A stretch of 64,000 bases of DNA from a bacterium (GTDB lineage Bacteria; Chloroflexota; Dormibacteria; Aeolococcales; Bog-877). A program made the position numbers and the translations under genes. The stretch lies in NCBI GenBank assembly GCA_021791415.1, contig JAJYWQ010000044.1:12401-76400 (forward strand), written 5' to 3'. Positions within the stretch are counted from its first letter, which is position 1; every line of letters begins with the position of its first letter. Shown here piece after piece: positions 1 through 15,952 of the stretch. The notes under the pieces are model-generated. The model did no database searches. It was not told the origin of the DNA and saw only the letters and a program-made list of their open reading frames with translations.

Positions 1-553
1 CCCAGGTGCAGGCCCCCTCGCACTGGACACTCTGGTCGCACACCCGGCTGCAGATGTCGGGCAGGACGGAGGTCTCGCGCAGGACGGCGTGCGCGCCCTG
101 CAGGTCGCGCTCCCGAATGGCGGCGATGAAGCGCGGGATGTCATTGTGAGCCGGGCATCCTTCGAGGCAGGTCGGGTCAGGGCAGGCGAGGCACCGATCG
201 GCCTCTCGCAAGGCGTCCTTCCAGGTGCTGAACCCGCGCCTGACCTCTGTCGTGTTGCCTCGAAGACGGCTCGGATACAGGGTGAGCGAGACGTGCCGCG
301 GCCCGACCACCGTGGGCCCGCTGACGGAGATGGCGGCATAGGGGCAGACCCGCTGGCACTGCCGGCAACCGACACAGAGGCGGTCGTCGGCTCGGACGAT
401 CCACCGCTCCTGGTCCAGCCCCAGCGCCCCGGTGGGGCAGCGCACGGCGCACTCCTGGCAGCCGACACAGCGCTCGCTGTCAACCCGTACCTCGGCGTGC
501 CGGGCCGGTGCCGCAAGCCCTGGCCCGATCCCCTCGCGGACATCGACACTCAT
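1..553 (-). CDS. Fe-S oxidoreductase. N-terminal 2x[4Fe-4S] ferredoxin domain followed by a glutamate-synthase-small-subunit (GltD)-like Cys-rich domain. The 3' end runs off the window (partial).
   Basis: Reverse-strand translation from ATG near 553 gives MSVDVREGIG... with CVGCQECAVRCP and CVGCRQCQRVCP, then CLACPDPTCLEGCP...IPRF, which is the GltD/NfnB-type N-terminus. The forward ORF 89..688 has non-protein-like composition. Confidence 0.6.
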   Translation of the reverse strand, partial: MSVDVREGIGPGLAAPARHAEVRVDSERCVGCQECAVRCPTGALGLDQERWIVRADDRLCVGCRQCQRVCPYAAISVSGPTVVGPRHVSLTLYPSRLRGNTTEVRRGFSTWKDALREADRCLACPDPTCLEGCPAHNDIPRFIAAIRERDLQGAHAVLRETSVLPDICSRVCDQSVQCEGACTW

Positions 554-584
554 TCCGAGGTCTCCCACACCCTTGCGGCCGACG

Positions 585-2135
585 TCACTGGATTCCGCCC
601 ATGGCCACGTACAGGGCCGCCACGCCAAGGCCGGCAACCACCACGGCGGAGGTGCCGATCAGCCTCAGGCCGGCCAGCCTGGACGTGAGCGGCGCAAGGT
701 CACGGCCGGAGATCCGCCAGGTGGCGTAGGCCGCGCCCAAGGTGCCTATGGCGGTGACCACCACCTGGCTGATGACCACCCCCTGCGGAGTCAGCAGGTG
801 GAGGTTGTAGAGGGAGGAGTGGGCGGTGCCGAACAGATTCCACCCGAAGCCGAAGGGATCCGAGATGGCGGGGATGATCCGCGGCGCGTGATACCAGAAC
901 CTCGGCAGCTGCCGGGCGAGGTAGTCCGCAGCCATGAGGGGGATGAAGCCGTACGCCAGGGGCGCGAACCAGCTGGTGAAGGAGCCCGCTCTTCCCGGCA
1001 CCCGGCGCACGGACCTCACCAGGGCGACGCTGCGCTTGGCCAGGAACTCCCTCACCCCGAAGGCGTAGGCGGCGACCAGGAGGGCGACCACACCGATGAT
1101 CGCCAGGTAGTCGACCGGGTTGGGGTAGCCGGGGAATCCGGTGTGGAGGTTGAGCCAGCGGTCCAGAGGTGCGTAGAAGGGCAGCGCGTTGACCTGCTGG
1201 AAGATCACCAGCCCGAACAGGATGGCCACCGCCCAGGCCACATCTACCCGGCGGCGGACGGGCGCCACGACTGAGGTGAGCGGCTTCTGCACGTACACCC
1301 CGACGTTGTCGTAGGGGCAGTTCTTGATGCACTCGGTGCACAGCCCGCACATCAGGTTGGAGGTGGCGCTGCCCGGCCACTCGTACCAGGGGCAGGGGTA
1401 GCCGCGCTCGCTGCCCCGCATGCAGTCCTTGGTGGGGCAGGTCAGGCAGCGCTCCCGGTCGCGGGTGCGCATCCCGGCCACCATCCCGGTGGACCCCACG
1501 GTCCCGATGAGGGCGGTGAGTGGGCAGAGGTAGCGGCAGAAGGTACGGCGCTCGAAGAGAAGGAAGGTGATCAGCGCCGAGCCGATCACGAAGAAGACCA
1601 GGAAGCTGGTGAACCGGGGGTCGCCGGGACCGGCGATGTTGAAGTACTCCTCGAACCAGGTGAGACCGAGGAACATGGCCACCGAGGGCAGCAACGCCCA
1701 CCGGCTGAGCCACTCCGGCCAGCGCAGGTGCAGCCCGATGGAGATGGCGTGACGCTTCCAGAACGTGTGGCGCTGAACCCACTCGGCGAAGCCACCGAAG
1801 GGACACATGACGCACCAGCCGCGGCCGACGCCCACCATGAGCAGGAACACCGCGCAGAACCAGATGTACCAGGTGATGACGGTGGCGAAGTTGTGAGTGG
1901 GAGCCAGAATCCCCACCAGCCCGGTCACGATCACCAGCCAGAAGATGATCTGGTTGGGCAGGATGAGCATGAACTGGAAGGGGCGGCTGCGGAGCAGGCG
2001 CCGCACCCGGGGATCTCGGGAGATGTCGCGCTGCGGGTCGGTCGGCCCGAAGTGAGCCTCCAGCCCGGCACGAGACGGCTGGCGCACCCGGGTGGGCAGG
2101 TCGCGGACCGGAAGTTCCTTCAGCGGCAGGGCCAT
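585..2135 (-). CDS. NapH/MauN-like membrane-bound polyferredoxin (4Fe-4S binding integral membrane protein)
   Basis: Start MALPLKELPV preceded by AGGAGGTG 9 nt upstream on the coding strand. Several TM helices. CVMCPFGG motif plus CLTCP...CMRG...CPW...CGLCTECIKNCPY ferredoxin motifs. Lies 31 nt upstream of the GltD-like gene on the same strand. Confidence 0.65.
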   Translation of the reverse strand: MALPLKELPVRDLPTRVRQPSRAGLEAHFGPTDPQRDISRDPRVRRLLRSRPFQFMLILPNQIIFWLVIVTGLVGILAPTHNFATVITWYIWFCAVFLLMVGVGRGWCVMCPFGGFAEWVQRHTFWKRHAISIGLHLRWPEWLSRWALLPSVAMFLGLTWFEEYFNIAGPGDPRFTSFLVFFVIGSALITFLLFERRTFCRYLCPLTALIGTVGSTGMVAGMRTRDRERCLTCPTKDCMRGSERGYPCPWYEWPGSATSNLMCGLCTECIKNCPYDNVGVYVQKPLTSVVAPVRRRVDVAWAVAILFGLVIFQQVNALPFYAPLDRWLNLHTGFPGYPNPVDYLAIIGVVALLVAAYAFGVREFLAKRSVALVRSVRRVPGRAGSFTSWFAPLAYGFIPLMAADYLARQLPRFWYHAPRIIPAISDPFGFGWNLFGTAHSSLYNLHLLTPQGVVISQVVVTAIGTLGAAYATWRISGRDLAPLTSRLAGLRLIGTSAVVVAGLGVAALYVAMGGIQ

Positions 2136-2175
2136 TGTGGGATGCACCTCCTGTGGCACTTGAGGGATTCCACGG

Positions 2176-3885
2176 GTGACGGTAGGCGATATCGCGCGGA
2201 AGGGGCAGGGCCGAAGGTCCCGCGAATCTCGGGACCTTCGGCCCCTCTCCCCTGCTACAGTTCTGATCTGTCCAGTGGCCAGCGCCAGCCCCGATCGCCG
2301 TGACCTGCTGCTGGAGGCGGGCCTGGCGCTCACCTCCGAGCTTTCGCTCCCATCGCTTCTGCGGCGGATCGTGAGGCTCGCCTGCCAGCTCACTGACGCG
2401 AGGTATGGGGCGCTCGGCGTCCTCGGTCCCGGGGGCGGGATCTCGCAGTTCGTCACCCACGGCGTCAGCGCCGTTGAACGGGGCCGGATCGGGCGTCTTC
2501 CAGAGGGCCGGGGTATCCTGGGGGCCCTGCTGCGACCCGGTCCGCCGCTGCGCCTGGACGACCTCGGCTCAGATTCCCGATCGGTTGGCTTCCCGCCCCA
2601 TCACCCGCCCATGCGCTCATTTCTGGGAGCGCCGGTGGTGATTCGTCGGACCGTCTTCGGGAGCATCTACCTCACCGAGAAGCAGGGCGGGCTGCCCTTC
2701 ACCGCGGACGACCAGCTGTCACTGGAGGTCCTCGCGGGCCAGGCGGCGGTGGCCGTCGCCAACGCCACCCTGTACCAGAGGGCCGTGTCCCGCCAGCGCT
2801 GGCTGGCAGCGCTCCGGGAGGTGGCCCAGGCCACCATCACCGGAGGCGAGCCGTCCGAGGCTCTGCGGCTGGTGGCCGCGTACAGCCGGGAGCTGATCGG
2901 TGGCGGAGCCGCCCTTTTGGCTCGCACCGACGGCGGCATTCGACAGGAGCCCGAGGTGCTGGCCGCCGCCGGTCCGGGGGCCAGGAGCCTCGCCCGGCGG
3001 CTGGGCGCTGCCACCCGGGATCCCGTCGCCGGGGCGGTCCGGCGGGGGCGGCAGTTGGTGATCCAGGTCCCGGCTGCGACCCGAACCGGACGGAGCCCAG
3101 GGACGGCGCCGCTGGCGGTCCTGCCATTCGGGCAAGGGGGGCCCAATCGAGGCGTCCTGCTGGCCTTGGGAGCGGCGGGAGCGCCGCTGCCCGAAGAGGA
3201 GGCTGTCGAGATGCTCACCGCGCTGGCCGCCCAGACCGCCGTGGCCCTGCAGTTTCAGCAGAGCCAGAGCGAGCGGCAGCGGCTGGCCCTGCTGGACGAG
3301 CGGGAGAGGATCGCCAAAGAGCTCCACGACGGGGTGATTCAGTCCCTGTTCGCCGTCGGCATGGGGTTGCAGGCCGTGGCTCCAGCCACAGACGACGTCA
3401 CCCGCCAGCGGCTCGAACGGGCGGTGCTGGAGCTCGACCAGGTCATCGGCGACCTGCGCCAGTACATATTCGGGCTCCGACCAGGCATCCTGGGATCCAG
3501 CCGGCTGGCTGATGCCATGCGCCGCCTGGGGGAGGATTTCCAGGACCGATGCGGGGTCCACACGGTGGTGGAGGTGGACTCAGAGGTGGAGGCGCGGCTC
3601 GGCGCCCAGGCGGGCGAGCTGCTCCAGCTGACGCGAGAGGCCCTTTCCAACGTCGGCCGGCACGCCCAGGCCACCAGCTGCCGGGTGCGCGCCCGGGCCC
3701 AGGCGAGGTCCACTGTGGTCACCATCTCCGACGACGGTCGGGGCTTCGCCGTCCGCAGGGCCCGCGGCCGGGGCCAGGGCCTGCAGAACATGCGGGACCG
3801 AGCCCGGGGCATCGGTGGCAGGCTGGCGATCACCTCGGCCCCCGGCCGGGGCGCCCGCCTGCGGCTGGTGGTGCCCCATGGCTGA
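2176..3885 (+). CDS. DosS/DosT (DevS)-like sensor histidine kinase with two GAF domains, HisKA_3 and HATPase
   Basis: GAF-A contains GFPPHHPPMRSFLGAPV, as in the DosS/DosT haem pocket. HisKA_3 box ERERIAKELHDGVIQSLF. C-terminal ATPase motifs present. Start uncertain (GTG 2176 or GTG about 2275). The 3' end overlaps the response regulator start by 8 nt. Confidence 0.8.
   Translation: MTVGDIARKGQGRRSRESRDLRPLSPATVLICPVASASPDRRDLLLEAGLALTSELSLPSLLRRIVRLACQLTDARYGALGVLGPGGGISQFVTHGVSAVERGRIGRLPEGRGILGALLRPGPPLRLDDLGSDSRSVGFPPHHPPMRSFLGAPVVIRRTVFGSIYLTEKQGGLPFTADDQLSLEVLAGQAAVAVANATLYQRAVSRQRWLAALREVAQATITGGEPSEALRLVAAYSRELIGGGAALLARTDGGIRQEPEVLAAAGPGARSLARRLGAATRDPVAGAVRRGRQLVIQVPAATRTGRSPGTAPLAVLPFGQGGPNRGVLLALGAAGAPLPEEEAVEMLTALAAQTAVALQFQQSQSERQRLALLDERERIAKELHDGVIQSLFAVGMGLQAVAPATDDVTRQRLERAVLELDQVIGDLRQYIFGLRPGILGSSRLADAMRRLGEDFQDRCGVHTVVEVDSEVEARLGAQAGELLQLTREALSNVGRHAQATSCRVRARAQARSTVVTISDDGRGFAVRRARGRGQGLQNMRDRARGIGGRLAITSAPGRGARLRLVVPHG
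2208..2244. promoter_or_regulatory. Perfect 15 bp inverted repeat with a 7 nt loop, in the divergent intergenic region or 5' leader
   Basis: GGGCCGAAGGTCCCG cgaatct CGGGACCTTCGGCCC. Sits between the NapH-like start (2135, minus) and the DosS-like kinase start (2176 GTG or about 2275 GTG, plus). Confidence 0.4.
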
Positions 3886-4546
3886 GGAACCGCCGCCCAG
3901 CCGGTTGCGGGTGATGCTGGTGGACGACCACGAGCTGGTCCGCGACGGCCTCCGCGCGGTCCTGGGCGCCTCCGGGGAGTTCGACATCGTCGCCGAGGCC
4001 GCGGACGAGGCTGGGGCGATCCGGGAGTTCGAACGCACCAGCCCCGACGTCGTCCTGATGGACGTGCGCCTGGGGTCGGGAAGTGGGATCGAGGCGACCC
4101 GTGAGATGCGGGCCCGCAGGCCCGAAACGAAAGTCCTCATGCTCACCTCCTTCGCCGACGACGAGGCGCTTTTCGCCTCGGTCATGGCCGGCGCGGCCGG
4201 TTACCTCCTGAAGCAGATCCGCGGTGGGGAGATCGTGGCCGCGGTCCGGGCCATCGGAGCCGGTGGAAGCCTGCTGGACCCGGCGCTCACCCGGACCGTC
4301 CTGGACCAGTGGCGAGAGGCCAGAAGCCGGCTCCGCGACGAACGGCTGGCGCGCCTCTCAGCCCAGGAGGAGCGCATCCTGAGCCGGGTGGCCGCAGGGC
4401 GCACCAATCGGGAGATCGCCGCCGAGCTTCACCTGGCCGAAAAGACCGTCAAGAACTACGTCTCCAGCATCCTGGACAAGCTGGAGGTGGCCCGGCGAGC
4501 TGAGGCCGCCGCCTACTTGGCGCGCCACGGGCGGTCCACGTCCTGA
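3878..4546 (+). CDS. NarL/LuxR-family response regulator (DosR/DevR-like)
   Basis: MAEEPPPSRLRVMLVDDHELVRDGL receiver domain. C-terminal LuxR HTH (REIAAELHLAEKTVKNYVSSILDKL). Overlaps the kinase stop (ATGGCTGA). Confidence 0.85.
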   Translation: MAEEPPPSRLRVMLVDDHELVRDGLRAVLGASGEFDIVAEAADEAGAIREFERTSPDVVLMDVRLGSGSGIEATREMRARRPETKVLMLTSFADDEALFASVMAGAAGYLLKQIRGGEIVAAVRAIGAGGSLLDPALTRTVLDQWREARSRLRDERLARLSAQEERILSRVAAGRTNREIAAELHLAEKTVKNYVSSILDKLEVARRAEAAAYLARHGRSTS

Positions 4547-4663: not shown

Positions 4664-5356
4664 TCAGCCCGTCGGCCGGGGCGTCTTCCCACCGTCCCGG
4701 GGCGGAGCCCAAGCCACCGCGGACTCCGCGGCCGCCAACGCAGTCGCGGCGTGGGGGGCGGAGACGCCCCGGTGCGGCTCCAAGACCCGGTCTATGATCC
4801 CGTACTCGACGGCCTCGGTCGCGGTGAGGAAGTAGTCCCGGTCGATGTCCCGCTCGACCTGACCCAGGGGCCGACCGGAGTGGTGGGCGATGATCTCCGC
4901 CATCCGCCGGGTGTTGGCCAGCACCTCGCGCAGCTGGATCTCCATGTCCCGGGGCGCGCCGCGTGTTCCGGCGGTGCCTTGGTGGATCATGATCTTGCTG
5001 CTGGGGAGCGCCATCCGCCTTCCGGCGGCCCCCCCGCACAGAATCATCGCGGCGGCCGACATCCCCATCCCGATACAGGTGGTGGCCACTGGACAGCTCA
5101 CCTGCTGCATCACGTCGTAAATCGCGAAGCCGGCGTATGCCAATCCCCCGGGCGAGTTGATGTAGAGCTGGATCTCGCTCTCCGGGTCCTGGGCCTCCAG
5201 GTACAGCATCTCCGCGACCAGCAGGTTGGCAACCCGGTCGTCGACCTCCTCGCCCAGGAATAGGATGCGCTCCTTCACCAGCAGGGAGTAGATGTCGAAG
5301 GCCCGCTCCCCCCTGGCCGAACTGTCCAGGACCGTCGGCACCAAGCCGGCGGTCAC
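4664..5356 (-). CDS. clpP: ATP-dependent Clp protease proteolytic subunit ClpP (catalytically intact)
   Basis: ERILFLG...YINSPGG...GMGMSAAA...MIHQ...DIDRD carries the Ser-His-Asp triad. GTG start at 5356 has GGAG 8 nt upstream. The AT-rich MIYF... extension in the track has atypical codon usage. About 45 aa C-terminal Ala/Pro-rich tail. Confidence 0.85.
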   Translation of the reverse strand: MTAGLVPTVLDSSARGERAFDIYSLLVKERILFLGEEVDDRVANLLVAEMLYLEAQDPESEIQLYINSPGGLAYAGFAIYDVMQQVSCPVATTCIGMGMSAAAMILCGGAAGRRMALPSSKIMIHQGTAGTRGAPRDMEIQLREVLANTRRMAEIIAHHSGRPLGQVERDIDRDYFLTATEAVEYGIIDRVLEPHRGVSAPHAATALAAAESAVAWAPPRDGGKTPRPTG

Positions 5357-5410
5357 AGCCGGTGCTCCGCTGAGGCCGCACCGCCTGGCGCCGCCCGGTG
5401 AGCCACCCTC

Positions 5411-5427
5411 TTCATATCGTATGAAGT
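5411..5427. promoter_or_regulatory. AT-rich palindrome TTCATA-N3-TATGAA in the clpP/clgR-like divergent promoter region (±2 bp)
   Basis: TTCATATCGTATGAA inside a roughly 45 bp AT-rich patch (ttcatatcgtatgaagtatatcattcaaggtatga) in an otherwise 70% GC sequence. Confidence 0.35.
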
Positions 5428-5470
5428 ATATCATTCAAGGTATGAGACGGCATGGACGGGGAGCCCACGG

Positions 5471-5731
5471 GTGACGGGGCGCAGGCACGAAACCCCCTTC
5501 CCTGGGTTCCAGGAGATGGCGGAGCGGCGCCGGCACCTGGGAGGCCAGCTCGCCGCCCGCCGGCTGGCTGCGGGACTTTCGCAGACGGAGCTCGCTGCCC
5601 GCATGGGCACCTCGCAGTCCGCTGTGGCGCGGCTGGAGGCGGGGAAGGCGGACGTCCGGATTTCCACGGTGACCAGGTACGCGCGGGCCCTGGCGCTCCA
5701 GGTGGAGATCACCCTGGGGGAACGTGGCTGA
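5471..5731 (+). CDS. XRE-family helix-turn-helix transcriptional regulator (ClgR-like)
   Basis: LSQTELAARMGTSQSAVARLEAG HTH. GTG start has GGGGAG upstream. Divergent from clpP. Stop overlaps the downstream ClpP-like gene. Confidence 0.6.
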   Translation: MTGRRHETPFPGFQEMAERRRHLGGQLAARRLAAGLSQTELAARMGTSQSAVARLEAGKADVRISTVTRYARALALQVEITLGERG

Positions 5732-6302
5732 GGAGGGGGCCCCGCCGGTCTGGGCCCTTCTGCAAGAGGAGCTGTCGGCCCGGGGGATGATCCTGATCCA
5801 GGGACACCTGGACCATCAGCTGGCCACCCGCGCGGCTGCCCAGCTGATGGAGTGTGACGCCGTCTCCGACGCGCCCGCTCGCATCCACCTGTTCACCTCG
5901 TCCGGGGAGTTCGGCTGCGCCCTCACGCTCATGGACACGATCACGGCGCTGGGCATACCGACCGAGGTCACGGCGGTGGGGGCGGTGCAGGGCCCTGGCC
6001 TTGGTGTGCTGGCGGTCGCCGACCGCCGGGTGGCAACACCCAACTGCCGGCTCGCCTTCGCCGCCCCTCGACTGCAGTTGGACGGGGACCTGACCGAGCT
6101 GACCGGACTCCTAGACGCCGAGTTGCGAGATCAGCAGCGGTGGACAGAGCAGGTGGCCCAAGCCACCGGGCGGCCGCTCGAGCTCGTGGAGGCGGACCTC
6201 GCCACCGCCCTCACCCTCGCGCCGGAAGCGGCCCTGCGCTACCGGCTGATCGACGAGGTGCTGGCCGCCTCCCCCGGGCCCTCGAGGGGATCGCTGAGGT
6301 AG
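5725..6302 (+). CDS. ClpP-family paralog lacking the catalytic triad (ClpR-like pseudo-protease)
   Basis: LLQEELSARGMILIQGHLDHQLA...LFTSSGEFGCALTLMDTI aligns with the ClpP fold. The active-site Ser, His and Asp positions are replaced (GAVQGPG, RLAFAAP). Overlaps the XRE regulator stop by 7 nt. Confidence 0.6.
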
Positions 6303-6660
6303 GGATCGGGCGGCTCGCCTCCACCGACCGCCAACCGGGCGGGAGGCAGGTCACTGGAGCGCTCCGCCAGGCCGAGGATCTGATCACCGATCCCCTGGTG
6401 GCGGAGCACGTCCCACCCGGCCTCAGGCTCCAGCGGGGTGGTGGCGACGACCTGATCACCCTCGACATGAACGTTCCAACCCAGGTTCTCCAGCCGCCGG
6501 AGCACCGGCGAGAGGATGGCCGCGCGGTCGTGGATCTGCTTGGCGGCGGCGGCTATCCGCACCGAAACCGGGAGGTCCGCGGGGGTGGGCCTGTCGGGGA
6601 AGCCGAAGGAGTGCATCTCCATGTACGTTTCCATGTGCCGGGAGATGGGCTCCCGGGTCA
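6239..6660 (-). CDS. Hypothetical protein, last gene of the bd-like/Rieske-b operon
   Basis: In-frame tail of track ORF 6239..7402 after the CydA-like stop at 6709. GTG about 6660 has GGTGAGGAG 9 nt upstream. High GC3. No recognisable motifs. Confidence 0.3.
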
Positions 6661-6708
6661 CCTCGCGGAGCTCCTCACCCGCCCGCCGGATGGGCCGGAA
6701 GACCAGCC

Positions 6709-8100
6709 TCACGGTCCGGTCCTGGTGGGCACCATGACCCCCAGATTGCTCGCCGGACCATTGAGGGCCGGGCCGCTGGTGGAGGGCGGCGTGTAATTCT
6801 GCTGCTGATTGATGAGCATGTGGTTGGTGATCAGGAAGGGGCCCCGGCTGTCCTCGCGGATGTAACCCATCAGAGCCATGATCAGGGAGATGGCCACCCC
6901 CACGGTGATGAGGGAGATGGCCTGTCCCCGCCCGGCGTCCCCCCAGTGCAGCCGGCCTCGGGAGAGATGGACGGCGTAGACGGTGATCGCGGTGATGGTC
7001 ACCCCGGTGAAGACGATGAGGGCCGTGAGCTTCCAGGGGATCATCTGCCCCCAGGGGATGAGCAGCCCCCCCTGCCAGATGGGGACATTGGCGTTGGCGG
7101 CGAAGACGCTCTCGTAGCTCCAGGCCAGCGACGAAGGGGTGGAGATCAGCAACCAGGCCGCGAAGGAGAGAGCGGTGCACACCGCCAGCGCCGGCGAGCG
7201 GAAGCCGCTGACCCGAACCCGGCGCCAGAGGTAGAAGATCCCCACGGTGAAGATCGCCCCCAGGAGGAACACCTGGAAGAGGAAGGCCACCGACAGCCCG
7301 CCCAGCATCATCTCGTACCAGGAGGCATAGGCGTGGAGCTGGATCTCCTTGGCGTACTCCCACCCGACCAGGGGCTGGGCGATCGTGAACCCCACCGCCC
7401 ACATCAGCCCGTAGTGGCCCATCCAGTCCAGGTAGGCACGATGCAACTGCTGCCGGGAACGCCAGAGCAGGCGGATCCCCGCCACCAGCGCCACCATCGC
7501 CCCGGCGAAGGCGATGTTGCCGACGAAGCGGTGCATCTCCAGAGGGATCTCTGTGGGGTTCATGAGGATGAGCGGCAGGTTGAAGGCCGGACGGGGCGTG
7601 AGCATGTAGGAGGCCACCACGTTGATCATCAGCATCTGGATGCTGGCGTTGATGAAGAGGAGGATCTCCAGCCCCACCCGCAGCCCCCTCACCCGTCCCA
7701 GCCGGTCCCAGCGCGCATAGAGCGGGTAGAGGCAGATGATCTCGCCGACGAAGGCGGCGGCCTCGGCCACGAAGGGCCAGAACAGGATCCTCTCCAGGGT
7801 CACGAAGAAGTGGCTCCAGAGCCCCAGGAAGAGGATCATCACCGCGAAGATCGCCAGGGAGCCTCCCACCGCGAAGGTCGCCCCCAGGACGGTGACCAGC
7901 CCCTTGGAGAAGCGGTCGTAGTGGGGGTTGCGGCGCTTCCAGCCCATGAAGTCCGTGACCGCCAGGATTATGTACCCGCCCTGCTGAAAGGCCGCGAACT
8001 GAATGTGGCCGAGCATCAGCAGGGCGACCAGGGCGGTCGCCACGCCGGTGGAGATCGGGACCGGGGTGAGCTGGGGGGTGGAAGCGAGGATCAAGTGCAT
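6709..8100 (-). CDS. Cytochrome bd-family subunit I (CydA-like) paralog 2
   Basis: Polytopic membrane protein with the CydA signature WDRLG (PLYARWDRLGRVRGL). Start is 1 nt after the cytochrome b stop. Confidence 0.7.
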   Translation of the reverse strand: MHLILASTPQLTPVPISTGVATALVALLMLGHIQFAAFQQGGYIILAVTDFMGWKRRNPHYDRFSKGLVTVLGATFAVGGSLAIFAVMILFLGLWSHFFVTLERILFWPFVAEAAAFVGEIICLYPLYARWDRLGRVRGLRVGLEILLFINASIQMLMINVVASYMLTPRPAFNLPLILMNPTEIPLEMHRFVGNIAFAGAMVALVAGIRLLWRSRQQLHRAYLDWMGHYGLMWAVGFTIAQPLVGWEYAKEIQLHAYASWYEMMLGGLSVAFLFQVFLLGAIFTVGIFYLWRRVRVSGFRSPALAVCTALSFAAWLLISTPSSLAWSYESVFAANANVPIWQGGLLIPWGQMIPWKLTALIVFTGVTITAITVYAVHLSRGRLHWGDAGRGQAISLITVGVAISLIMALMGYIREDSRGPFLITNHMLINQQQNYTPPSTSGPALNGPASNLGVMVPTRTGP

Positions 8101-8101
8101 A

Positions 8102-9310
8102 TCAGAGGTTGAAGAGCCGGTTCACCGCCAGCAGCGCCTCGAAGAGGAGGAACAGCACCACGAAGAGGGCCGGGATCATAACCTCGGGGCGGCGCCAGGG
8201 CTCCCGACCCGGGGTCCGGTCGAGGAAGGGTACCAAGATCAGGAGGGTTGTCCCTATCCCCGGGACGATGAAGACCCCGACCGGGATCATCCAGGCCTGG
8301 GGGAACTGCACCAGCATCTGGTCGAGCGGAAGGAAGAACCACTCAGGGGTGGGGACGTAGTTGAGGGCGGCCGGGTTGGCGGCGCGCTCCAGGGGGGCGC
8401 CCACCACCACCGCCATGACGAAGATGAGCAGCACCAGCCCGAAGCTCACCACCGAGTCCTTGAACACCTGGGAGGGGAAGAACTCGTCGAGGTCCACCGG
8501 CACCGCGTATCCAGGGTCCGAGGGAATGGCCGGATAGGGGTACTCGACATGAGCCATCCGCCGCGCCCTCTCCTCCGCGGTCTCCTCCTCGACTCCCTCG
8601 TAGTTGACCCAGGACCCGTGCTCGCCGTGACGCCGGAGCAAGATCAGGTGCAGCCCGATGAGGGGAACCAGCAGGGCCGGCAGCAGCCAGATGTGGATGG
8701 CGAAGAAGCGTGTCAGGGTGGCCGGCCCCATCTGGGGCCCACCACGGAGGATCTCCTGCAGCTGGGTCCCGAAGATGGGGAAGTACTCGACGACATGGGT
8801 CACCACGGTCGCCGTCCAGTAGGCGGCCTGGTCCCAGGGCAGCATCGCCCCGGTGATCCCCAGCCCCAGGACCAGCAGGAACAGGACCACGCCGACTATC
8901 CAGTTGAGCTCTCGGGGCTTCTTGTAGGAGCCGCTCACGAAGGTGCGAACCATGTGCAGCCCGATGACCACGAACAGCACGTAGGCCCCCCAGAGGTGCA
9001 TCCCCCGGACGATGGCCCCGAACTCGTCGTGCCTCTCGGTGAAGTTGAGACTCTCCCAGGCCTCGGTGGTCGAGGGCACGTAGGTCCAGAGGAGGAACAT
9101 CCCGGTCACTATCTGGTTCACGATCAGGATCAGGGTCGCGCTGCCCAGGGAGTAGGCCCAGGCTCCTCGCCGGGGCACCGCCTCGTAGAGGAGCTGGTGG
9201 ACCAGGTCGGTGACCCCGAGGCGCTCGTCCACCCACCTGTAGGTGGTGGCCATCACCCCGGCGAAGGGCCGGCTCAGGCGACCTGCCAGACGGCTTCTCT
9301 CGGCGGCCAT
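8102..9310 (-). CDS. Cytochrome b (fused b6/subunit IV type) of a Rieske/b quinol oxidoreductase
   Basis: Conserved His pairs in TM helices and the PEWFFLP motif. 402 aa. Alternative start at MATTYRW (about 9253). Confidence 0.85.
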   Translation of the reverse strand: MAAERSRLAGRLSRPFAGVMATTYRWVDERLGVTDLVHQLLYEAVPRRGAWAYSLGSATLILIVNQIVTGMFLLWTYVPSTTEAWESLNFTERHDEFGAIVRGMHLWGAYVLFVVIGLHMVRTFVSGSYKKPRELNWIVGVVLFLLVLGLGITGAMLPWDQAAYWTATVVTHVVEYFPIFGTQLQEILRGGPQMGPATLTRFFAIHIWLLPALLVPLIGLHLILLRRHGEHGSWVNYEGVEEETAEERARRMAHVEYPYPAIPSDPGYAVPVDLDEFFPSQVFKDSVVSFGLVLLIFVMAVVVGAPLERAANPAALNYVPTPEWFFLPLDQMLVQFPQAWMIPVGVFIVPGIGTTLLILVPFLDRTPGREPWRRPEVMIPALFVVLFLLFEALLAVNRLFNL

Positions 9311-9313
9311 CCC

Positions 9314-9832
9314 CTACCCCTCCGTGAGCACGTTGCGGACGTACAGGGTGGTGCCCACCAGCTTGTGCTGGTAGCGGAAGAGCGGCTGCGGGGGAGGTCC
9401 CCCGATGTTGGTCCCGTCGATGCTGTAGAGGCCACCGTGGCAGGGGCAGAGGAAGACGTTGAGGTTGATGTCCCAGTGGACGTCACACTGCATGTGGGTG
9501 CAGACGTTGGACAGAGTGAGGAGCTGCACCTTGCCGTTCAGGTTGAGCTTGACCACGTAAACGGTGCGGGGAACCGGGGGCACCTGCCAGGCGTCCCCGC
9601 CCTGGTCCAACAGGACCACGTAGGCGGTGGGGACCCCGACCGGGACGTGCTGGATGTCGGCCACCATCACCCAGGGGTAGCGACCCTTGTAGAAGGCGGG
9701 GCTGAGGATCGATCCCACGATCGGGGCCCCGATGAGGAGGCCGATCCCCGCACCTGTCACCTGGATGCCCAGGGTCATGAACTTGCGCCGCGACATCCGG
9801 CGCTGTGAGATGGCCAACTCTTGGTCAGGCAC
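9314..9832 (-). CDS. Rieske [2Fe-2S] protein with twin-arginine signal
   Basis: CTHMQC...CPCHGG cluster ligands. SRRKFMTLG Tat motif. GTG start at 9832, alternative ATG about 9796. Confidence 0.85.
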   Translation of the reverse strand: MPDQELAISQRRMSRRKFMTLGIQVTGAGIGLLIGAPIVGSILSPAFYKGRYPWVMVADIQHVPVGVPTAYVVLLDQGGDAWQVPPVPRTVYVVKLNLNGKVQLLTLSNVCTHMQCDVHWDINLNVFLCPCHGGLYSIDGTNIGGPPPQPLFRYQHKLVGTTLYVRNVLTEG

Positions 9833-10058
9833 TTCCGCGCACCACCAGCAGGATCAAGAGGCTGAGGCAGAGGCCAAGGAAGAAGACGAAGGTGAAGAAG
9901 CTGGCGCCCACGGCCAGCCAGCCGGACATGGTGTCCCCGGCCAGGAAGAGCTGGCGGACCCGGCGCATGGCCATCCAGAACCCGGCCAGCATGACCACGA
10001 AGAAGGAGGTGATGATCAGCCCCAGGTACCAGGCCGACTCGAAGTCCTGGTAGTTCAT
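9825..10058 (-). CDS. Small two-TM membrane protein (77 aa), translationally coupled
   Basis: MNYQDFESAWYLGLIITSFFVVMLAGFWMAM...FFTFVFFLGLCLSLLILLVV. Its ATG overlaps the upstream gene stop (ATGA) and its stop overlaps the Rieske start. Confidence 0.5.
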   Translation of the reverse strand: MNYQDFESAWYLGLIITSFFVVMLAGFWMAMRRVRQLFLAGDTMSGWLAVGASFFTFVFFLGLCLSLLILLVVRGSA

Positions 10059-11401
10059 GGGAGGGTCCCCGGCGGAGCGTTGAAGTTCTGCGCCGACTGG
10101 TGCAGGGTGAGCAGGCAGGAGGCCTGGCCGGTGCCAGCGTCTATGCCGCAGGGGAGCTTGGCATTCTCCTTCACGACCCCCATGAAGATGGTGAGGGCCA
10201 GCGCCGCCACGGCCACCGCGCCCATGGCCCGCGGGACCAGGGGCGCGAGCGGGACTGCAGCTCCCCCCCGGCGCACCTCCACGAGGTAGCGGCCAAGGTT
10301 GATCGCGGTGGCGATGAACGCCACGAAGAGTGCCGTGTAGCGCAGCCACACGAGACCTGGAGGGAGGACGGCGGCGGGCAGCGCCGTGCCCGCCATCCCC
10401 AGCAGGGAGATCGCGGTCAACCCGGCGCCCGGCCCGGAGGATGGCCCCCGGTGCAACCAGAAGACGAGGTTCGCCCCCACCACCACCACCGCCAGAAGAC
10501 CCACCTGGCCGATGAACATGCTTCCCGAGTTGAAGACGAAGAGGTTGTCGAAGGCCCCGATAGAGCTGGTCTTGATCGCCTCGGCCAGAAGGAACCCGGA
10601 GATAGGCTGGGCCAGGAGGAAGATCGACCCGATGGCGAAGGTGACCCGGCTCGTCCAGGTGTGGTACTGGCGCTCCTCCTCGGTCTTGGCACGCCTCGCC
10701 CTCCAGACGGCGATCGCCGCCAGCACCAAAGCCGACCAGGAGAGGGTGGCCCCGGCGTAGTGCAGCAGCAGCCAGGGGTAGCTCGGGGAGTACATGGCGT
10801 GGGCCGCGCTGACCGCCGTCCCCGGGGTCAGGGCAAAGCTGTCCAGCTGGACGATCATGAAGAGGAAGAGGTACTGGATCAGGGCGAAGGTGAGCCCCAC
10901 CGCCAAGTGCAGCCTGGGCCCCAGTCGATCCCAGCCGTACACGTAGAGCAGCAGCAGGGGGATGCCCACGAAGAAGCTGGCGAAGGCGATGGTCAGGGGC
11001 AGCAGCAGGAGGTTGAGCAGGGTGCCGATCAGGCGGCCGTAGAGCCCGGTCAGCAGCACCACCGCGAAGACCGCCCAGGTGGCCCCGAAGCTGTACAGAT
11101 AGAGGACCGAGTGCGACAGCCCGCGGGCATAGCGAAGGCAGTTGGGGCTGGCCCCGGGGCGCCTCCCGGCCAGCTCCATGAAGGGGGCGATCCCGGCAGC
11201 CCCGAGGATGTAGCCCACGATGGCGATGTGGATGAGGAAGGTCGCCCCGATGGCGAATTCAGCCCCCAGGGTGCCCAGAGGCAACCGGGGTTGTGGGCTC
11301 GGGAAGGCAGACAGCAGCACTGGAACCCAATGCTGACGGGCTGAGGGGGCCGAAGGCAAGCCGGGAGCGGCGCGGCGATAATCGACAGGTGCCGGAGCCA
11401 T
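10055..11401 (-). CDS. Cytochrome bd-family subunit I (CydA-like) paralog 1
   Basis: YVYGWDRLGPRLHLAVGLTFAL matches the CydA GWDRLG region. Nine or more TM helices. Start uncertain: the 11401 ATG overlaps the holA start, alternative GTG about 11320. Confidence 0.7.
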   Translation of the reverse strand: MAPAPVDYRRAAPGLPSAPSARQHWVPVLLSAFPSPQPRLPLGTLGAEFAIGATFLIHIAIVGYILGAAGIAPFMELAGRRPGASPNCLRYARGLSHSVLYLYSFGATWAVFAVVLLTGLYGRLIGTLLNLLLLPLTIAFASFFVGIPLLLLYVYGWDRLGPRLHLAVGLTFALIQYLFLFMIVQLDSFALTPGTAVSAAHAMYSPSYPWLLLHYAGATLSWSALVLAAIAVWRARRAKTEEERQYHTWTSRVTFAIGSIFLLAQPISGFLLAEAIKTSSIGAFDNLFVFNSGSMFIGQVGLLAVVVVGANLVFWLHRGPSSGPGAGLTAISLLGMAGTALPAAVLPPGLVWLRYTALFVAFIATAINLGRYLVEVRRGGAAVPLAPLVPRAMGAVAVAALALTIFMGVVKENAKLPCGIDAGTGQASCLLTLHQSAQNFNAPPGTLP

Positions 11402-12858: not shown

Positions 12859-13740
12859 GTGGCGGGTAAAGTAGGCCGGATGCTGGACGTCGCCCAGGCC
12901 CCCGCCAAGCTGAACCTGGCCCTGGAACTGGTGGGCCGGCGCGCCGACGGCTTTCACCTCCTGACCGCTGTCTCCCAGACCGTGGCCTGGAGCGACCTGG
13001 TGGCCGCCGAGCTGGACCGCGGTCAGAACACCCCCGGAGAGATCTCGGTGGCGGTCAGGGGGCCCTTCCGGGATGGGGTGCCTGAGGGGCCCGACAACAT
13101 AGTGGCCCGGGCCGCCGCCGCCCTCCACCGCCGCGGGGTGGGCCGCGAGGTGGTGTCGGTGGCGATCTGGAAGCGCATACCCACCAAGAGCGGCCTCGGC
13201 GGCGGGTCGGCCGACGCCGCGGCGGTGCTCCGGCTCGCCGCCGGCGACGACCTGGCCGCGCGTCTCGCCGACGTGGCCCTCGAGTGCGGCGCCGACGTGC
13301 CGTTCGCTCTCCGCGGCGGAGCGGCCCTCCTGGGCGGGGTGGGTGAGGTGCTCACTCCCCTCCCCCATCTGGCACCGACGGTGATCCTGGTGGCGGTGCT
13401 GGGGGCCGTGGAGACCGCCCGGGCTTACTCCTCGGTCCAGAGCGAGGAGATGACGGACGGAAGCCGGGCCGCGGCGGTGGCCCAGGCCCTGAGGAGAGGG
13501 GAGCTGCCATCCCCGGAACTCTTGGGCAGCGCCCTCGAGGCCGCCGCCCTGCGGGTGGCCCCCGAGCTGGAGCCGCGGCTCGAGCGGCTGCGCGCCGCCA
13601 CACCACATCTGAGCTGGGCGATGACCGGAAGCGGCGGGGCGTTCTTCGCGCTTGCCAAGCCCGCCGAGGCGGGGCCGGCGCTGGCCGCCTGCCGGGCCGC
13701 GCTGCCGGGCCTGCCGATTCGCGCCACGGCGCCGGCATGA
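12859..13740 (+). CDS. ispE: 4-diphosphocytidyl-2-C-methyl-D-erythritol kinase
   Basis: APAKLNLALELVGRRADGFHLL and KRIPTKSGLGGGSADAAAVL GHMP kinase motifs. Start GTG 12859 or ATG 12880. Confidence 0.8.
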   Translation: MAGKVGRMLDVAQAPAKLNLALELVGRRADGFHLLTAVSQTVAWSDLVAAELDRGQNTPGEISVAVRGPFRDGVPEGPDNIVARAAAALHRRGVGREVVSVAIWKRIPTKSGLGGGSADAAAVLRLAAGDDLAARLADVALECGADVPFALRGGAALLGGVGEVLTPLPHLAPTVILVAVLGAVETARAYSSVQSEEMTDGSRAAAVAQALRRGELPSPELLGSALEAAALRVAPELEPRLERLRAATPHLSWAMTGSGGAFFALAKPAEAGPALAACRAALPGLPIRATAPA

Positions 13741-15137
13741 GCTGGGCAGACCCCCGGACGAGGCTCGCGCTGCTGGCCGGGAAGGTCACCGCCTGGGCCT
13801 CGCGCGGGCTGAGGATGGGCGGGGGCACAACGCTCCCGGGCGATGTCGCCAGGGCGATCGATCCCCGGGTCCTGCGCAAGCTGGCAGCGTCTCCCAGGCG
13901 GGGCACCGTGCTGGTCACCGGGACCAACGGCAAGACCACCACCGCCGCCCTCCTGCGGCGGATGGCGACCGCGGCAGGGTGGCGCACGGGCGGGAACCAG
14001 AGCGGCTCGAACCTCATCTATGGGCTGACCGCCGCCGCCATCGCCCATGCCGATCTCCGGGGTCGGATGGATGTGGACTGGCTGGTACTCGAGGTCGACG
14101 AGCTGAGCGCGCTGGCGGCAGCAAGGGAGTTGCGGCCAGAGATTCTGGTGGTGCTGAACGCGTTCCGCGACCAGCTGGACCGGTCCTTCGAGGTGGACCA
14201 GGTAGCAGCTCGCCTGGGGGAGGCAGTCGCCGCGCTTCCCGAGACGGCGGTGGCCGTCCTCAACTCTGACGACCCACGCATAGCGGCCCTGGATGGGGCG
14301 GCCAGGACATCCCTCTTCGGGATCGAGGACCGGGAAGCGGACCGCGGAGGACTGCCGGAGTCTGCCGACCGTCCGGTCTGTCCCCGCTGTGGGACTTCGC
14401 TGCATTTCGACGCCGTCTACTACGGTCAGTGCGGGGACTATCGCTGTCCCGCCTGCGGCTGGTCGCGTCCCTCACCAGCGATGCGGGTGATCCGGGTCAT
14501 CGGCGCTGGCCTGGAGCATGTGGAGCTCACCCTGGCAGGCCCGGGCGGAGGTGTCGGGCCCGTGGAGGTCCCGCTGGCCGGTGCCCACAACGCCGCCAAC
14601 GTCGCGGCGGCGGCGGCGGCGGCGCTGGAGATGGGCGCCGATTGGGATCAGATCGAGCACGGGCTGCAGCAGTTCCGCCCCGCCTTCGGCAGGTCCCAGG
14701 TGGTGCGCTGGCGCCAGCGGCAGGTGCGCCTGCTTCTGGCCAAGAACCCGGCGGGAATGCAGGCCAGCCTGGAGGCGGTCCTCGGTGGAGACGCGGGCCC
14801 GGTGCTCGGGCTGGCCCTGAACGACGGGATCGCCGACGGCACCGACATCTCCTGGATCTGGGACGTGGAGTTCGAGAAGCTGGCCACGGTTGGGCCCCGC
14901 TGGATCGTACTGAGCGGCCGCCGGGCGGCAGAGCTGGCCCTGCGTCTCCGCTACGCCGGTCTGGCCGCGTCGCGGCTCTTGGTCCGCCCCGCCCCGGAGG
15001 AGGCCTTGGACGAGCTCGCGGAGAGGGCCGCACCGGGGACGGCGGCCCCGGCCCTCCTCACCTACACGGCGATGCTGGCCTGGCACCGGACAGTGGTCGG
15101 AGCCGGGGGAGCCAAGCCCTTCTGGACCGAGGGCTGA
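13737..15137 (+). CDS. murT: Lipid II isoglutaminyl synthase subunit MurT (Mur ligase family with Zn ribbon)
   Basis: VLVTGTNGKTTTAALL Mur-ligase P-loop. CPRCG...CPACG ribbon. ATGA overlap with ispE. Confidence 0.8.
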   Translation: MSWADPRTRLALLAGKVTAWASRGLRMGGGTTLPGDVARAIDPRVLRKLAASPRRGTVLVTGTNGKTTTAALLRRMATAAGWRTGGNQSGSNLIYGLTAAAIAHADLRGRMDVDWLVLEVDELSALAAARELRPEILVVLNAFRDQLDRSFEVDQVAARLGEAVAALPETAVAVLNSDDPRIAALDGAARTSLFGIEDREADRGGLPESADRPVCPRCGTSLHFDAVYYGQCGDYRCPACGWSRPSPAMRVIRVIGAGLEHVELTLAGPGGGVGPVEVPLAGAHNAANVAAAAAAALEMGADWDQIEHGLQQFRPAFGRSQVVRWRQRQVRLLLAKNPAGMQASLEAVLGGDAGPVLGLALNDGIADGTDISWIWDVEFEKLATVGPRWIVLSGRRAAELALRLRYAGLAASRLLVRPAPEEALDELAERAAPGTAAPALLTYTAMLAWHRTVVGAGGAKPFWTEG

Positions 15138-15952
15138 TGGCCGCCTCCAGTTCGCTGCGGCTGGGCGTGCTGTACCCCCGCGAGATGAACCTGTACGGCG
15201 ACCGCGGCAACGTCCTGGCCCTGGTCCGGCGCGCCGCGCTCCGAGGGGTGGAGTTGGAGGTCATGACCCTCGGCCTCGATGGAGGCCCTCCCCAGGAGAT
15301 CGAGGCATGCTCCGGCTTCCTTATCGGAGGCGGGCAGGACTTGGACCAGCTGGCCCTGGCCCATGATCTGGTGGCCCGAAAGGGACCGGCGCTCCGGGAG
15401 GCGGTGTCCGGAGGCGCCCCCCTCCTGGCCGTCTGCGCCGGCTACCAGCTCCTGGGCAAGCACTACCGGACGGCGACAGGGGATCTCATCCCCGGCCTGG
15501 GCATCCTCCCGCTGCGCACCGAGGCCGGCCCCCGCCGCCTGGTGGGCAACATCCTGGTCGCCGCCAACCCCGGACTCGGCCTGTCCAACCCCCTTCTCGT
15601 CGGCTTCGAGAACCATTCGGGACGGACCATGCTGGAACCAGGGTTGCAGCCCCTGGGGGAGGTGGTCCGGGGCGAGGGGAACGACGGAGACTCAGGTGCC
15701 GAGGGAGCGATTCTGGGGTCGGTGATCGGGACCTACCTGCATGGGCCCCTCCTGCCCAAGAATCCAGCCCTCGCCGACTGGTGGCTGTTCGCCGCCGCCG
15801 ACCGGACCGGTACGACCCTGGACAGATCCCACCTGGACGACTCCGCCGAGGAGGCCGCCCGCCGTGAGGCGATCCAGATCACTCTGCGTGGATCCCGGGC
15901 CCGGGGATACCGCCTCCTGGGACGGCGGGCACGAATCAGGCGAACTGGCTGA
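15137..15952 (+). CDS. gatD: Lipid II isoglutaminyl synthase glutaminase subunit GatD (CobB/CobQ-like GATase)
   Basis: MAASSSLRLGVLYPREMNLYGDRGN...LAVCAGYQLLG...GTYLHGP. TGATG overlap with murT. Confidence 0.8.
   Translation: MAASSSLRLGVLYPREMNLYGDRGNVLALVRRAALRGVELEVMTLGLDGGPPQEIEACSGFLIGGGQDLDQLALAHDLVARKGPALREAVSGGAPLLAVCAGYQLLGKHYRTATGDLIPGLGILPLRTEAGPRRLVGNILVAANPGLGLSNPLLVGFENHSGRTMLEPGLQPLGEVVRGEGNDGDSGAEGAILGSVIGTYLHGPLLPKNPALADWWLFAAADRTGTTLDRSHLDDSAEEAARREAIQITLRGSRARGYRLLGRRARIRRTG

Follow-up and report, generated by a model that had tools for sequence, protein, structure and literature searches.

The DosRST system has been studied almost solely as a mycobacterial dormancy switch. 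What looks like the same logic of sensor, regulator and operator is found here in an uncultured phylum and in Bacillota, and the question is which genes it would control there. The question is raised by one end of a 64-kb stretch of chromosomal DNA of ~70% G+C (contig JAJYWQ010000044.1; the whole stretch is called the window, and coordinates refer to it), where the genes of a sensor histidine kinase and a response regulator diverge from those of a membrane polyferredoxin and a flavoprotein. To the following reading we give a probability of about one half: the locus would encode a gas-sensing two-component system of the DosT/DosR type and, under its direct control, a conserved membrane redox enzyme of two genes, which probably carries electrons from NAD(P)H to menaquinone. 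All four genes in the window rest on strong homology matches and are not chance reading frames. The sequence-only reading from which we started had described a DosS/DosR-like pair divergent from a polyferredoxin and an oxidoreductase, and the four genes were found in that order and orientation.

A haem-type sensor kinase and a DosR-like regulator

The open reading frame of the kinase spans 2176-3885 on the + strand, with a GTG at 2275 as the likely start, as in public gene calls. The resulting protein (2275-3885, 536 amino acids) is a DosT-like histidine kinase with a haem-type GAF-A domain, a GAF-B domain, HisKA_3 and HATPase_c. Pfam matches were obtained for GAF_2/GAF (3.9e-22, with GAF_2 in two stretches), HisKA_3 (7.5e-14) and HATPase_c (1.5e-10), and no transmembrane or hydrophobic segment was predicted in this kinase, as for a soluble protein. 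The haem-pocket peptide GFPPHHPPMRSFLGAPV was confirmed in the translation. Among solved structures, the nearest relatives are the GAF-A domains of DosT (2vzw, 2.3e-43, 53% identity) and of DevS/DosS (2w3d, 1.5e-39, 49% identity). The kinase motifs HHPPM and YLTEK align with the proximal haem His and the distal Tyr of these proteins, i.e. H149 and Y171 in DosS, H147 and Y169 in DosT (PMC4082495), and both residues are kept in 12 Dormibacterota homologues of the kinase. At the ligand-channel position occupied by Glu87 in DosS and Gly85 in DosT, the kinase has the Gly of YGALGV and is therefore DosT-like, a difference whose functional effect is debated even in M. tuberculosis (PMC4082495). We conclude that, by sequence, this is a DosS/DosT-type haem-GAF kinase. 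The haem-pocket signature and the HisKA_3 domain first noticed are both borne out, and the alignment left the GAF domain in possession of its haem His and Tyr.

The regulator gene (3878-4546, +, 222 amino acids) overlaps the end of the kinase gene by 8 bp. Its product combines a receiver domain (Response_reg, 8e-25) with a GerE helix-turn-helix (2e-16), and its best solved relative is DevR/DosR (3c3w, 1.6e-47, 43% identity), in agreement with the NarL-family regulator coupled to the kinase that had been proposed. Equivalents of Asp54 (DVRL) and Thr82 (LTS) are preserved in the alignment to 3c3w. The recognition helix AEKTVKNYVS is the same as in DosR, including K179, K182 and N183, which we take to be the base-contacting residues in the DosR-DNA structure. 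On every sequence-level test of membership, sensor and regulator come out as DosS/T and DosR respectively. By homology, the GAF-A domain would bind haem, the kinase would be active when the haem is deoxy or carries nitric oxide (NO) or carbon monoxide (CO), and it would then phosphorylate the DosR-like regulator.

A redox operon that extends beyond the window

On the opposite strand, the polyferredoxin gene (585-2135, -) starts with an ATG at 2135, preceded by GGAGGTG, and encodes an integral-membrane protein of 516 amino acids with ~9 transmembrane helices. A gap of 31 nucleotides separates it from the flavoprotein gene (1-553, -), which is truncated by the window edge after the first 184 of 608 codons. 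The complete flavoprotein gene is present in identical public contigs (related locus L006, 11583-13409). It is overlapped by 4 bp by the gene of a second kinase of 514 amino acids, with four N-terminal hydrophobic helices, a PAS domain, HisKA_3 and HATPase_c. Next comes a gene for a 175-amino-acid SRPBCC-like protein; in L001 the two genes occupy 13406-15479, beyond the window. The SRPBCC-like protein has itself no family match, and in Acidimicrobiia its homologues are found fused to Rrf2, as the SRPBCC (Polyketide_cyc2) half of the fusion. By this layout the polyferredoxin operon has four genes, of which the window covers just the first and a third of the second. No second response regulator is encoded near the second kinase in the source contigs, so the PAS kinase may act on the DosR-like regulator. 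More speculatively, once co-induced it may sustain or tune the response by feeding back on this regulator, as DosS does after DosT in M. tuberculosis.

A double box in the divergent promoter region

The intergenic region between the divergent kinase and polyferredoxin genes is 139 bp long and contains a perfect 15-bp inverted repeat, GGGCCGAAGGTCCCG-cgaatct-CGGGACCTTCGGCCC, at 2208-2244, with GC-rich arms and a 7-nucleotide loop. Each arm is a box of the form GGGMC-N4-GKCCC: a box proximal to the polyferredoxin promoter, GGGCCGAAGGTCCC (2208-2221), and a distal one, GGGACCTTCGGCCC (2231-2244), their centres being 23 bp apart. The boxes match the OsdR/DevR motif, of which the experimentally validated Streptomyces OsdR consensus is AGGGCCGATCGGCCCT (PMC5069765); the DosR box of M. 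tuberculosis has this form too. The DosR-box scan suggested at the outset, run on the window, thus gave two boxes, both between the divergent genes. The two arms are the only exact copies within the 64 kb. Further boxes, searched for in the window with up to 3 mismatches or with the core pattern, were found in numbers expected by chance, the extra matches being GC-only and intragenic, and other regulon members within the window were rejected on this ground.

The region was compared in 13 Dormibacterota loci with diverged flanks. Five blocks are conserved: a kinase-side TAGAnT/TACAGT, the two boxes, a TAnnnT, a ribosome-binding site, and the polyferredoxin ATG. TAnnnT, a -10-like hexamer of the predicted polyferredoxin promoter (TACCGT, 2179-2184, -, in the window), lies at a constant 23 nucleotides from the proximal box in 13 of 13 loci. 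The distance from the boxes to the kinase-side -10-like element depends on the species and ranges from ~11 to ~80 nucleotides; in the window it is 11 nucleotides, measured from the distal box. With one distance constant and the other variable, the boxes appear to be placed for the polyferredoxin promoter. Assuming a transcription start ~7 nucleotides past the -10 element, the box centres would lie ~42 and ~65 nucleotides upstream of it, and a position around -42 is the usual site for an activator that substitutes for a -35 element. No consensus -35 was found for the polyferredoxin promoter, and a simple sigma-70 scan calls no promoter there; the absent -35 fits an activator-dependent promoter. 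On the other side, the predicted -10 hexamer of the kinase-regulator operon (TACAGT, 2256-2261, +) is 13 nucleotides ahead of the GTG start, which suggests a near-leaderless mRNA for these two genes.

The double box at an activator-like position independently supports the predicted link from the sensor pair to the polyferredoxin. Given its conserved sequence and position, the phosphorylated regulator would bind both boxes in the divergent promoter, and would activate the operon of the polyferredoxin, the flavoprotein, the PAS kinase with its four transmembrane helices and the SRPBCC-like protein.

Recurrence of the gene pair across phyla

The locus itself was recovered, by an exact-protein look-up, from 15 metagenome contigs, the longest of 131 kb. 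The closest genomes are metagenome-assembled genomes (MAGs) at 97-98% protein identity, followed by Candidatus Dormiibacterota MAGs at 83-87%, and many related MAGs were apparently derived from acid-mine sediment surveys. A profile-based scan, with one genome per species, yielded 289 related loci, the best 80 of which were kept. They span Dormibacterota, Chloroflexota, Bacillota and Actinomycetes/Acidimicrobiia, together with the cultured Ferrithrix thermotolerans; one homologue carries the annotation of a Sulfobacillus sp. MAG. In 71 of the 80 loci the polyferredoxin gene has the flavoprotein gene as its neighbour; among the 9 exceptions are contigs that stop short of the flavoprotein gene.

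Two classes of regulatory partners were found. In Class A (12 Dormibacterota, 10 Bacillota-labelled and 2 Actinomycetes loci), the pair is accompanied by a haem-type GAF kinase that keeps both His and Tyr, and by a regulator with an EKTVKN helix. The Bacillota members form a single operon of polyferredoxin, flavoprotein, haem-type GAF kinase and DosR-like regulator, preceded by GGGACTTTAGTCCC. In Class B (~25 Acidimicrobiia/Actinomycetes loci), the partners are a transmembrane PAS kinase, homologous to the second kinase of our locus, and a regulator with an RTVEG/S helix. A third situation is that of Chloroflexota loci without a nearby two-component system, in which double boxes 23 bp apart are again present.

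A census of perfect DosR-type boxes was made in the 250 nucleotides upstream of each polyferredoxin gene (19.8 kb in total). Thirty boxes were found there versus 33 in the remaining 1,036 kb, a ~48-fold enrichment, and without the Dormibacterota 13 were observed where 0.38 were expected; the loci being phylogenetically related, such a Poisson comparison overstates their independence and is indicative only. The conserved double box and this cross-phylum enrichment both support the regulatory link between sensor pair and redox module that had been put forward from gene order.

Several further observations were made in these loci. In Bacillota, more perfect GGGACTTTAGTCCC boxes occur downstream of the regulator gene (L024, 13558-13571; L022, 14747; L035, 10521 and 10544). 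In L024, the box is followed after ~90 nucleotides by a gene whose product, a ferritin-like di-iron protein, matches AurF and aldehyde-decarbonylase weakly; this gene is likely to be an additional member of the regulon. Class B loci (L048-L086, e.g. L061, 7545-8000 and 11765-12685) have a consensus promoter, TTGACA-N17-GTGATAGTAC, before the polyferredoxin gene, and a conserved AT-rich repeat, AGTAGTTCTACGGTAATACTTAAGTA, in the leader within otherwise GC-rich DNA. In 31 Acidimicrobiia/Actinomycetes loci, a convergent gene encodes an Rrf2 regulator (C-x7-C-x5-C) fused to SRPBCC, through which the enzyme may be under a second control, of the repressor type. The other Acidimicrobiia neighbours (carboxyltransferase, methylmalonyl-CoA mutase, Zn-dehydrogenase, thiolase, DnaX, RecR) were set aside as lineage-specific housekeeping genes that give no functional clue. 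Judged by its predicted regulators, the gene pair is tightly controlled everywhere by sensors of the redox or gas type, with a wiring that differs by lineage.

Could the repeat have another role? Its perfect 15-bp GC-rich arms and 7-nucleotide loop would suit an RNA hairpin formed in a transcript, such as an attenuator, a terminator or a processing site, and the same 16-base core is common in metagenomes as terminator-like hairpins. A metagenome scan for other double-box promoters, with AAGGTCCC-N8/9-GGGACCTT, returned mostly generic hairpins of this kind from unrelated organisms and was uninformative. However, the arm pairing has a covariation score of 0.072, where shuffles average 0.071 and 203 out of 500 score as high, and changes at the arm centres are non-compensatory, to the point that pairing is broken in L011-L013. 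Both results argue for a protein site. Moreover, neither a U-tract nor a terminator call was found at the repeat, no Rfam family was found in the operator region, and the repeat sits between divergent start codons, upstream of both predicted -10 elements. We therefore rejected the hairpin, which appears very improbable. A protein site might still serve just the autoregulation of the kinase-regulator genes, or another factor, the polyferredoxin operon being controlled otherwise, for instance by its own PAS kinase. Autoregulation is usual in DosR-type systems, the promoter region is shared, the distal box of the window is just 11 nucleotides from the kinase-side -10-like element, and in most Actinomycetes it is the PAS kinase, not the GAF kinase, that is the conserved partner of the gene pair. 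Such an arrangement does not explain why box spacing is constant to the polyferredoxin -10 element and drifts between ~11 and ~80 nucleotides on the kinase side. It does not explain either why the Bacillota boxes precede the polyferredoxin gene although kinase and regulator are encoded downstream in the same operon, or why Chloroflexota loci that have no two-component system nearby keep boxes before this gene. We give it little credence, and retain direct control of the polyferredoxin operon by the DosR-like regulator.

The predicted membrane redox enzyme

The only Pfam match of the polyferredoxin is Fer4_5 (8.8e-9). With the NapH/MauN model TIGR02163 it scores 23.1 bits for a cut-off of 213, so that the term NapH-like is valid at the level of the superfamily only. 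The NapH/MauN-type polyferredoxin of the sequence-only reading is thus kept as a Fer4_5 superfamily protein and dropped as a family assignment, since the score, some five extra helices and a CX2CP first motif all set the protein apart. Its own family is strongly conserved, at 54-85% identity across phyla (740 matches scored), under generic annotations; a plasmid collection gave just distant Fer4_5 proteins (22-32% identity). An alignment of 19 sequences revealed invariant Cys residues in a CX2CP (C108/C111) and a CX3CP (C200/C204) motif, at the ends of helices 2 and 4, and in two 4-Cys cluster motifs (C230/233/238/248 and C263/266/269/273). An AlphaFold (AF2) model with a predicted local distance difference test score (pLDDT) of 71.7 and a predicted template modelling score (pTM) of 0.76 has about nine helices. 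By the positive-inside rule, both Cys-Pro motifs and the eight cluster Cys are in Lys/Arg-rich loops and are predicted to be cytoplasmic. The model had no fold match in the PDB at E<0.001, and a profile search of PDB sequences gave just a marginal match to a ferredoxin motif. Helices 1-4 and their motifs appear to correspond to a module common to NapH, NosR and RdhC, for which a quinol/quinone site has been proposed (PMC5928378).

No invariant His was found in the 19-sequence alignment, hence no sign of a transmembrane haem wire, which argues against an extracytoplasmic electron route. Such a route had been considered initially; with the conserved Cys predicted on the cytoplasmic side it is unlikely.

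The part of the flavoprotein encoded in the window comprises a 2x[4Fe-4S] ferredoxin domain and Fer4_20/PF14691 (1.6e-27). The full-length protein matches Fer4_20 (1.8e-33) and Pyr_redox_2 (1.9e-28), the flavin adenine dinucleotide (FAD) and NAD(P)H domain being encoded outside the window, and contains no hydrophobic segment. The best PDB match is NfnB (4ylf_B, 6.9e-71), and matches to NfnB, NfnI-L and GltD range from 6.9e-71 to 5e-49. All curated NCBIfam cut-offs are missed (TIGR01316, 286 vs 472 bits; PRK12771, 254 vs 516), and no GltB or NfnA gene is adjacent. Accordingly, of the ferredoxin-GltD-like oxidoreductase first proposed, the domain content is confirmed by PF14691 and Pyr_redox_2, and the GltD label has to be revised, since among solved structures NfnB is the nearer relative and no curated cut-off is reached. 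The target enzyme as a whole resembles NapH and NfnB/GltD in parts, and on sequence criteria belongs to neither.

Many actinobacterial homologues of the flavoprotein are longer (~730 amino acids; P0201, P0227, P0232; L061, 9509-11713) and add a C-terminal flavodoxin domain (PF00258 or PF12641), which suggests a third redox partner in those lineages.

From domains and topology, a path for electrons can be drawn. The flavoprotein would oxidise NAD(P)H at its FAD, and electrons would pass along six [4Fe-4S] clusters, four in the flavoprotein and then two on the cytoplasmic side of the polyferredoxin, whose NapH-like four-helix module would pass them to menaquinone. By this path the respiratory chain would have an alternative entry from NAD(P)H to quinone, for use when oxygen is scarce or respiration is poisoned.

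Two other functions were considered. Under the same regulation, the complex might use NAD(P)H to reduce something other than quinone at the inner face of the membrane (Cu2+/Fe3+, a small nitrogen oxide or a nitro compound), and not be a respiratory entry point at all. The Fer4_5 superfamily has non-quinone members, and CcoG acts as a cupric reductase controlled by a haem sensor of the FixLJ type; many carriers were apparently found in metal-rich acid-mine samples, a three-Cys Rrf2-SRPBCC gene of the type that senses Fe-S status or NO lies beside the pair in 31 loci of other lineages, and invariant residues of acidic or polar type (E162, E163, Q314 and N316) are close to the outer ends of helices. 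Nevertheless, no CcoG/FixG model was among the NCBIfam matches at E<=0.001, where only a weak NapH match appeared, no conserved metal-binding Cys/His motif exists outside the cluster ligands, and the bias towards mine sites may just mirror relatedness to the query. We regard this acceptor as unlikely, if worth keeping in mind. The NfnB-type FAD could also make the complex a three-way, Fix/Nfn-like enzyme that splits or merges electron pairs among three partners, NAD(P)H, quinones reached through the polyferredoxin, and a ferredoxin or flavodoxin of low potential, or that works in reverse, from quinol to NAD(P)+. The nearest solved relatives, NfnB and NfnI-L, are bifurcating subunits, the flavoprotein has an additional N-terminal ferredoxin domain, and the flavodoxin domain of many ~730-amino-acid actinobacterial homologues goes in the same direction. 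GltD, however, shares the fold without bifurcation, the 608-amino-acid version of the organism studied here has no flavodoxin domain, no NfnA-equivalent partner is encoded nearby, and to run electrons simply backwards, from menaquinol to NAD(P)+, is strongly uphill. A three-way or reverse-running enzyme is improbable for this locus.

Electron transfer from NAD(P)H to menaquinone under DosR-type control, the reading that we prefer, has its own weak points. The C-terminal half of the polyferredoxin (~5 helices) matches no family or fold, and, the NapH score being far below its cut-off, the quinone site is assumed. Electron direction and nucleotide specificity are likewise assumptions. In NfnB, the phosphate of NADPH is presumably held by a pair of Arg residues; the flavoprotein has no Arg at the aligned position, which hints weakly at the use of NADH. 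Both the -10 elements and the transcription starts are predicted, and all steps of the mechanism are ones that we infer. Finally, GGGAC boxes are absent from Class B loci, which are wired to a PAS kinase and an RTVEG regulator, so that DosR-type control is lineage-specific and not universal. The relatedness of the loci, noted with the box census, is a further weak point.

A broader proposal may be made tentatively, at less than even odds. The gene pair would be an unrecognised type of membrane NAD(P)H dehydrogenase, maybe flavodoxin- or ferredoxin-coupled and bifurcating in some lineages. It would be a direct core target of haem-based, DosR-type hypoxia/NO switches across phyla of the Gram-positive type (Dormibacterota, Bacillota, Chloroflexota and some Actinomycetota), whereas in Acidimicrobiia a PAS kinase and an Fe-S Rrf2 regulator would have taken over its control.

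Neighbouring genes

Between the sensor pair and the next cluster (4664-6302) are genes for ClpP (4664-5434, -), an XRE-type helix-turn-helix protein (5471-5731, +) and a ClpP-like protein (5724-6302, +), the last weak and probably degenerate (Pfam, 1.3e-13). The three occur together only in the window and in L019; ClpP fragments are present in L007 and L008, and the more distant Dormibacterota loci have none of them. An operon-like cytochrome cluster follows (6239-11401, -). It encodes a cytochrome bd subunit-I-like protein of 448 amino acids (10055-11401), a 77-amino-acid protein, a Rieske protein (9314-9832), a cytochrome b6-like protein (8102-9310), a 463-amino-acid membrane protein (6709-8100) and a 157-amino-acid protein. 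The 463-amino-acid protein, for which no family match was obtained, is paralogous to the CydA-like one (25% identity, 2e-12), and two CydA-like proteins that flank a Rieske/cytochrome b pair are an unusual combination. The cluster is kept beside the sensor pair in several Dormibacterota loci, and no DosR-type box was found upstream of it. The rest of the window (11293-64000) is ordinary chromosome, with genes for a MurT-like ligase (13737-15137), polyphosphate kinase (16949-19096), a class A penicillin-binding protein (45829-47961), valyl-tRNA synthetase (58191-60806) and MetE (60816-63140), and two tRNA-Ala genes (40885 and 44064).

Comparison with known systems

The sensory half of the locus is close to DosS(DevS)/DosT-DosR(DevR) of M. 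tuberculosis and to OsdK-OsdR of Streptomyces coelicolor. The kinase is likewise soluble, with the order GAF-A, GAF-B, HisKA_3 and ATPase and with the haem His and distal Tyr, the regulator has the same REC and GerE domains and an identical recognition helix, and the operator again consists of GGGMC-N4-GKCCC boxes in tandem, separated by about two helical turns. As in DosRST there is a second kinase, but it is of the membrane PAS type and encoded inside the target operon, instead of being a second haem-GAF kinase. The host also differs, belonging to an uncultured Dormibacterota-like lineage and not to the actinobacteria.

To our knowledge, a polyferredoxin with an NfnB-like flavoprotein is not among the described members of the DosR or OsdR regulons. 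Among the papers that could be searched, none linked such a pair with DosR, and there was no relevant work on NapH-like/glutamate synthase or Sulfobacillus/polyferredoxin combinations.

For the polyferredoxin, the likeness is to NapH, the menaquinol dehydrogenase of periplasmic nitrate reductase, and to NosR, RdhC/PceC and MauN, which have in common a four-helix module with two Cys-Pro motifs at cytoplasmic ends, followed by two 4-Cys motifs (features described in PMC5928378). It departs from them in its first motif (CX2CP instead of CX3CP), in its first cluster motif (CxxCx4Cx9CP) and in the ~five extra C-terminal helices. Its partner is a cytoplasmic NAD(P)H flavoprotein and not the periplasmic NapG, and no NapG-type ferredoxin, nap or mau gene was found near the pair in the window or in the 80 related loci; nos and rdh genes are absent nearby as well. 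The flavoprotein shares with NfnB, the NfnI large subunit, GltD and the N-terminal module of DPD the two-cluster Fer4_20 domain and the FAD and NAD(P)H Rossmann domains. What sets it apart from NfnB and GltD is a further 2x[4Fe-4S] ferredoxin domain at the N terminus, an insertion of ~85 amino acids, and its constant pairing with a membrane polyferredoxin in place of NfnA or GltB.

An analogy of design exists with FixL-FixJ and fixGHIS, where a haem-based O2-sensing kinase and a FixJ/NarL-class regulator act upstream of a Fer4_5 polyferredoxin, FixG/CcoG. The haem is carried there by a PAS and here by a GAF domain, control in the Fix system is indirect via FixK, and our locus has neither a CcoG model match nor cbb3 oxidase assembly genes nearby.

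Should the enzyme prove to be an alternative NAD(P)H:quinone oxidoreductase, or a variant that bifurcates electrons, the hypoxic respiratory chains of soil and mine bacteria would gain a new component. With one operator and one operon, the locus also offers a simple regulon for the study of DosR-type signalling outside pathogens. Compared with the systems above, sensor and regulator are by sequence of a known kind, in an unusual phylum, and the predicted regulatory logic is ordinary; what is new is the conserved, uncharacterised target of respiratory type, and its link to DosR boxes across phyla.

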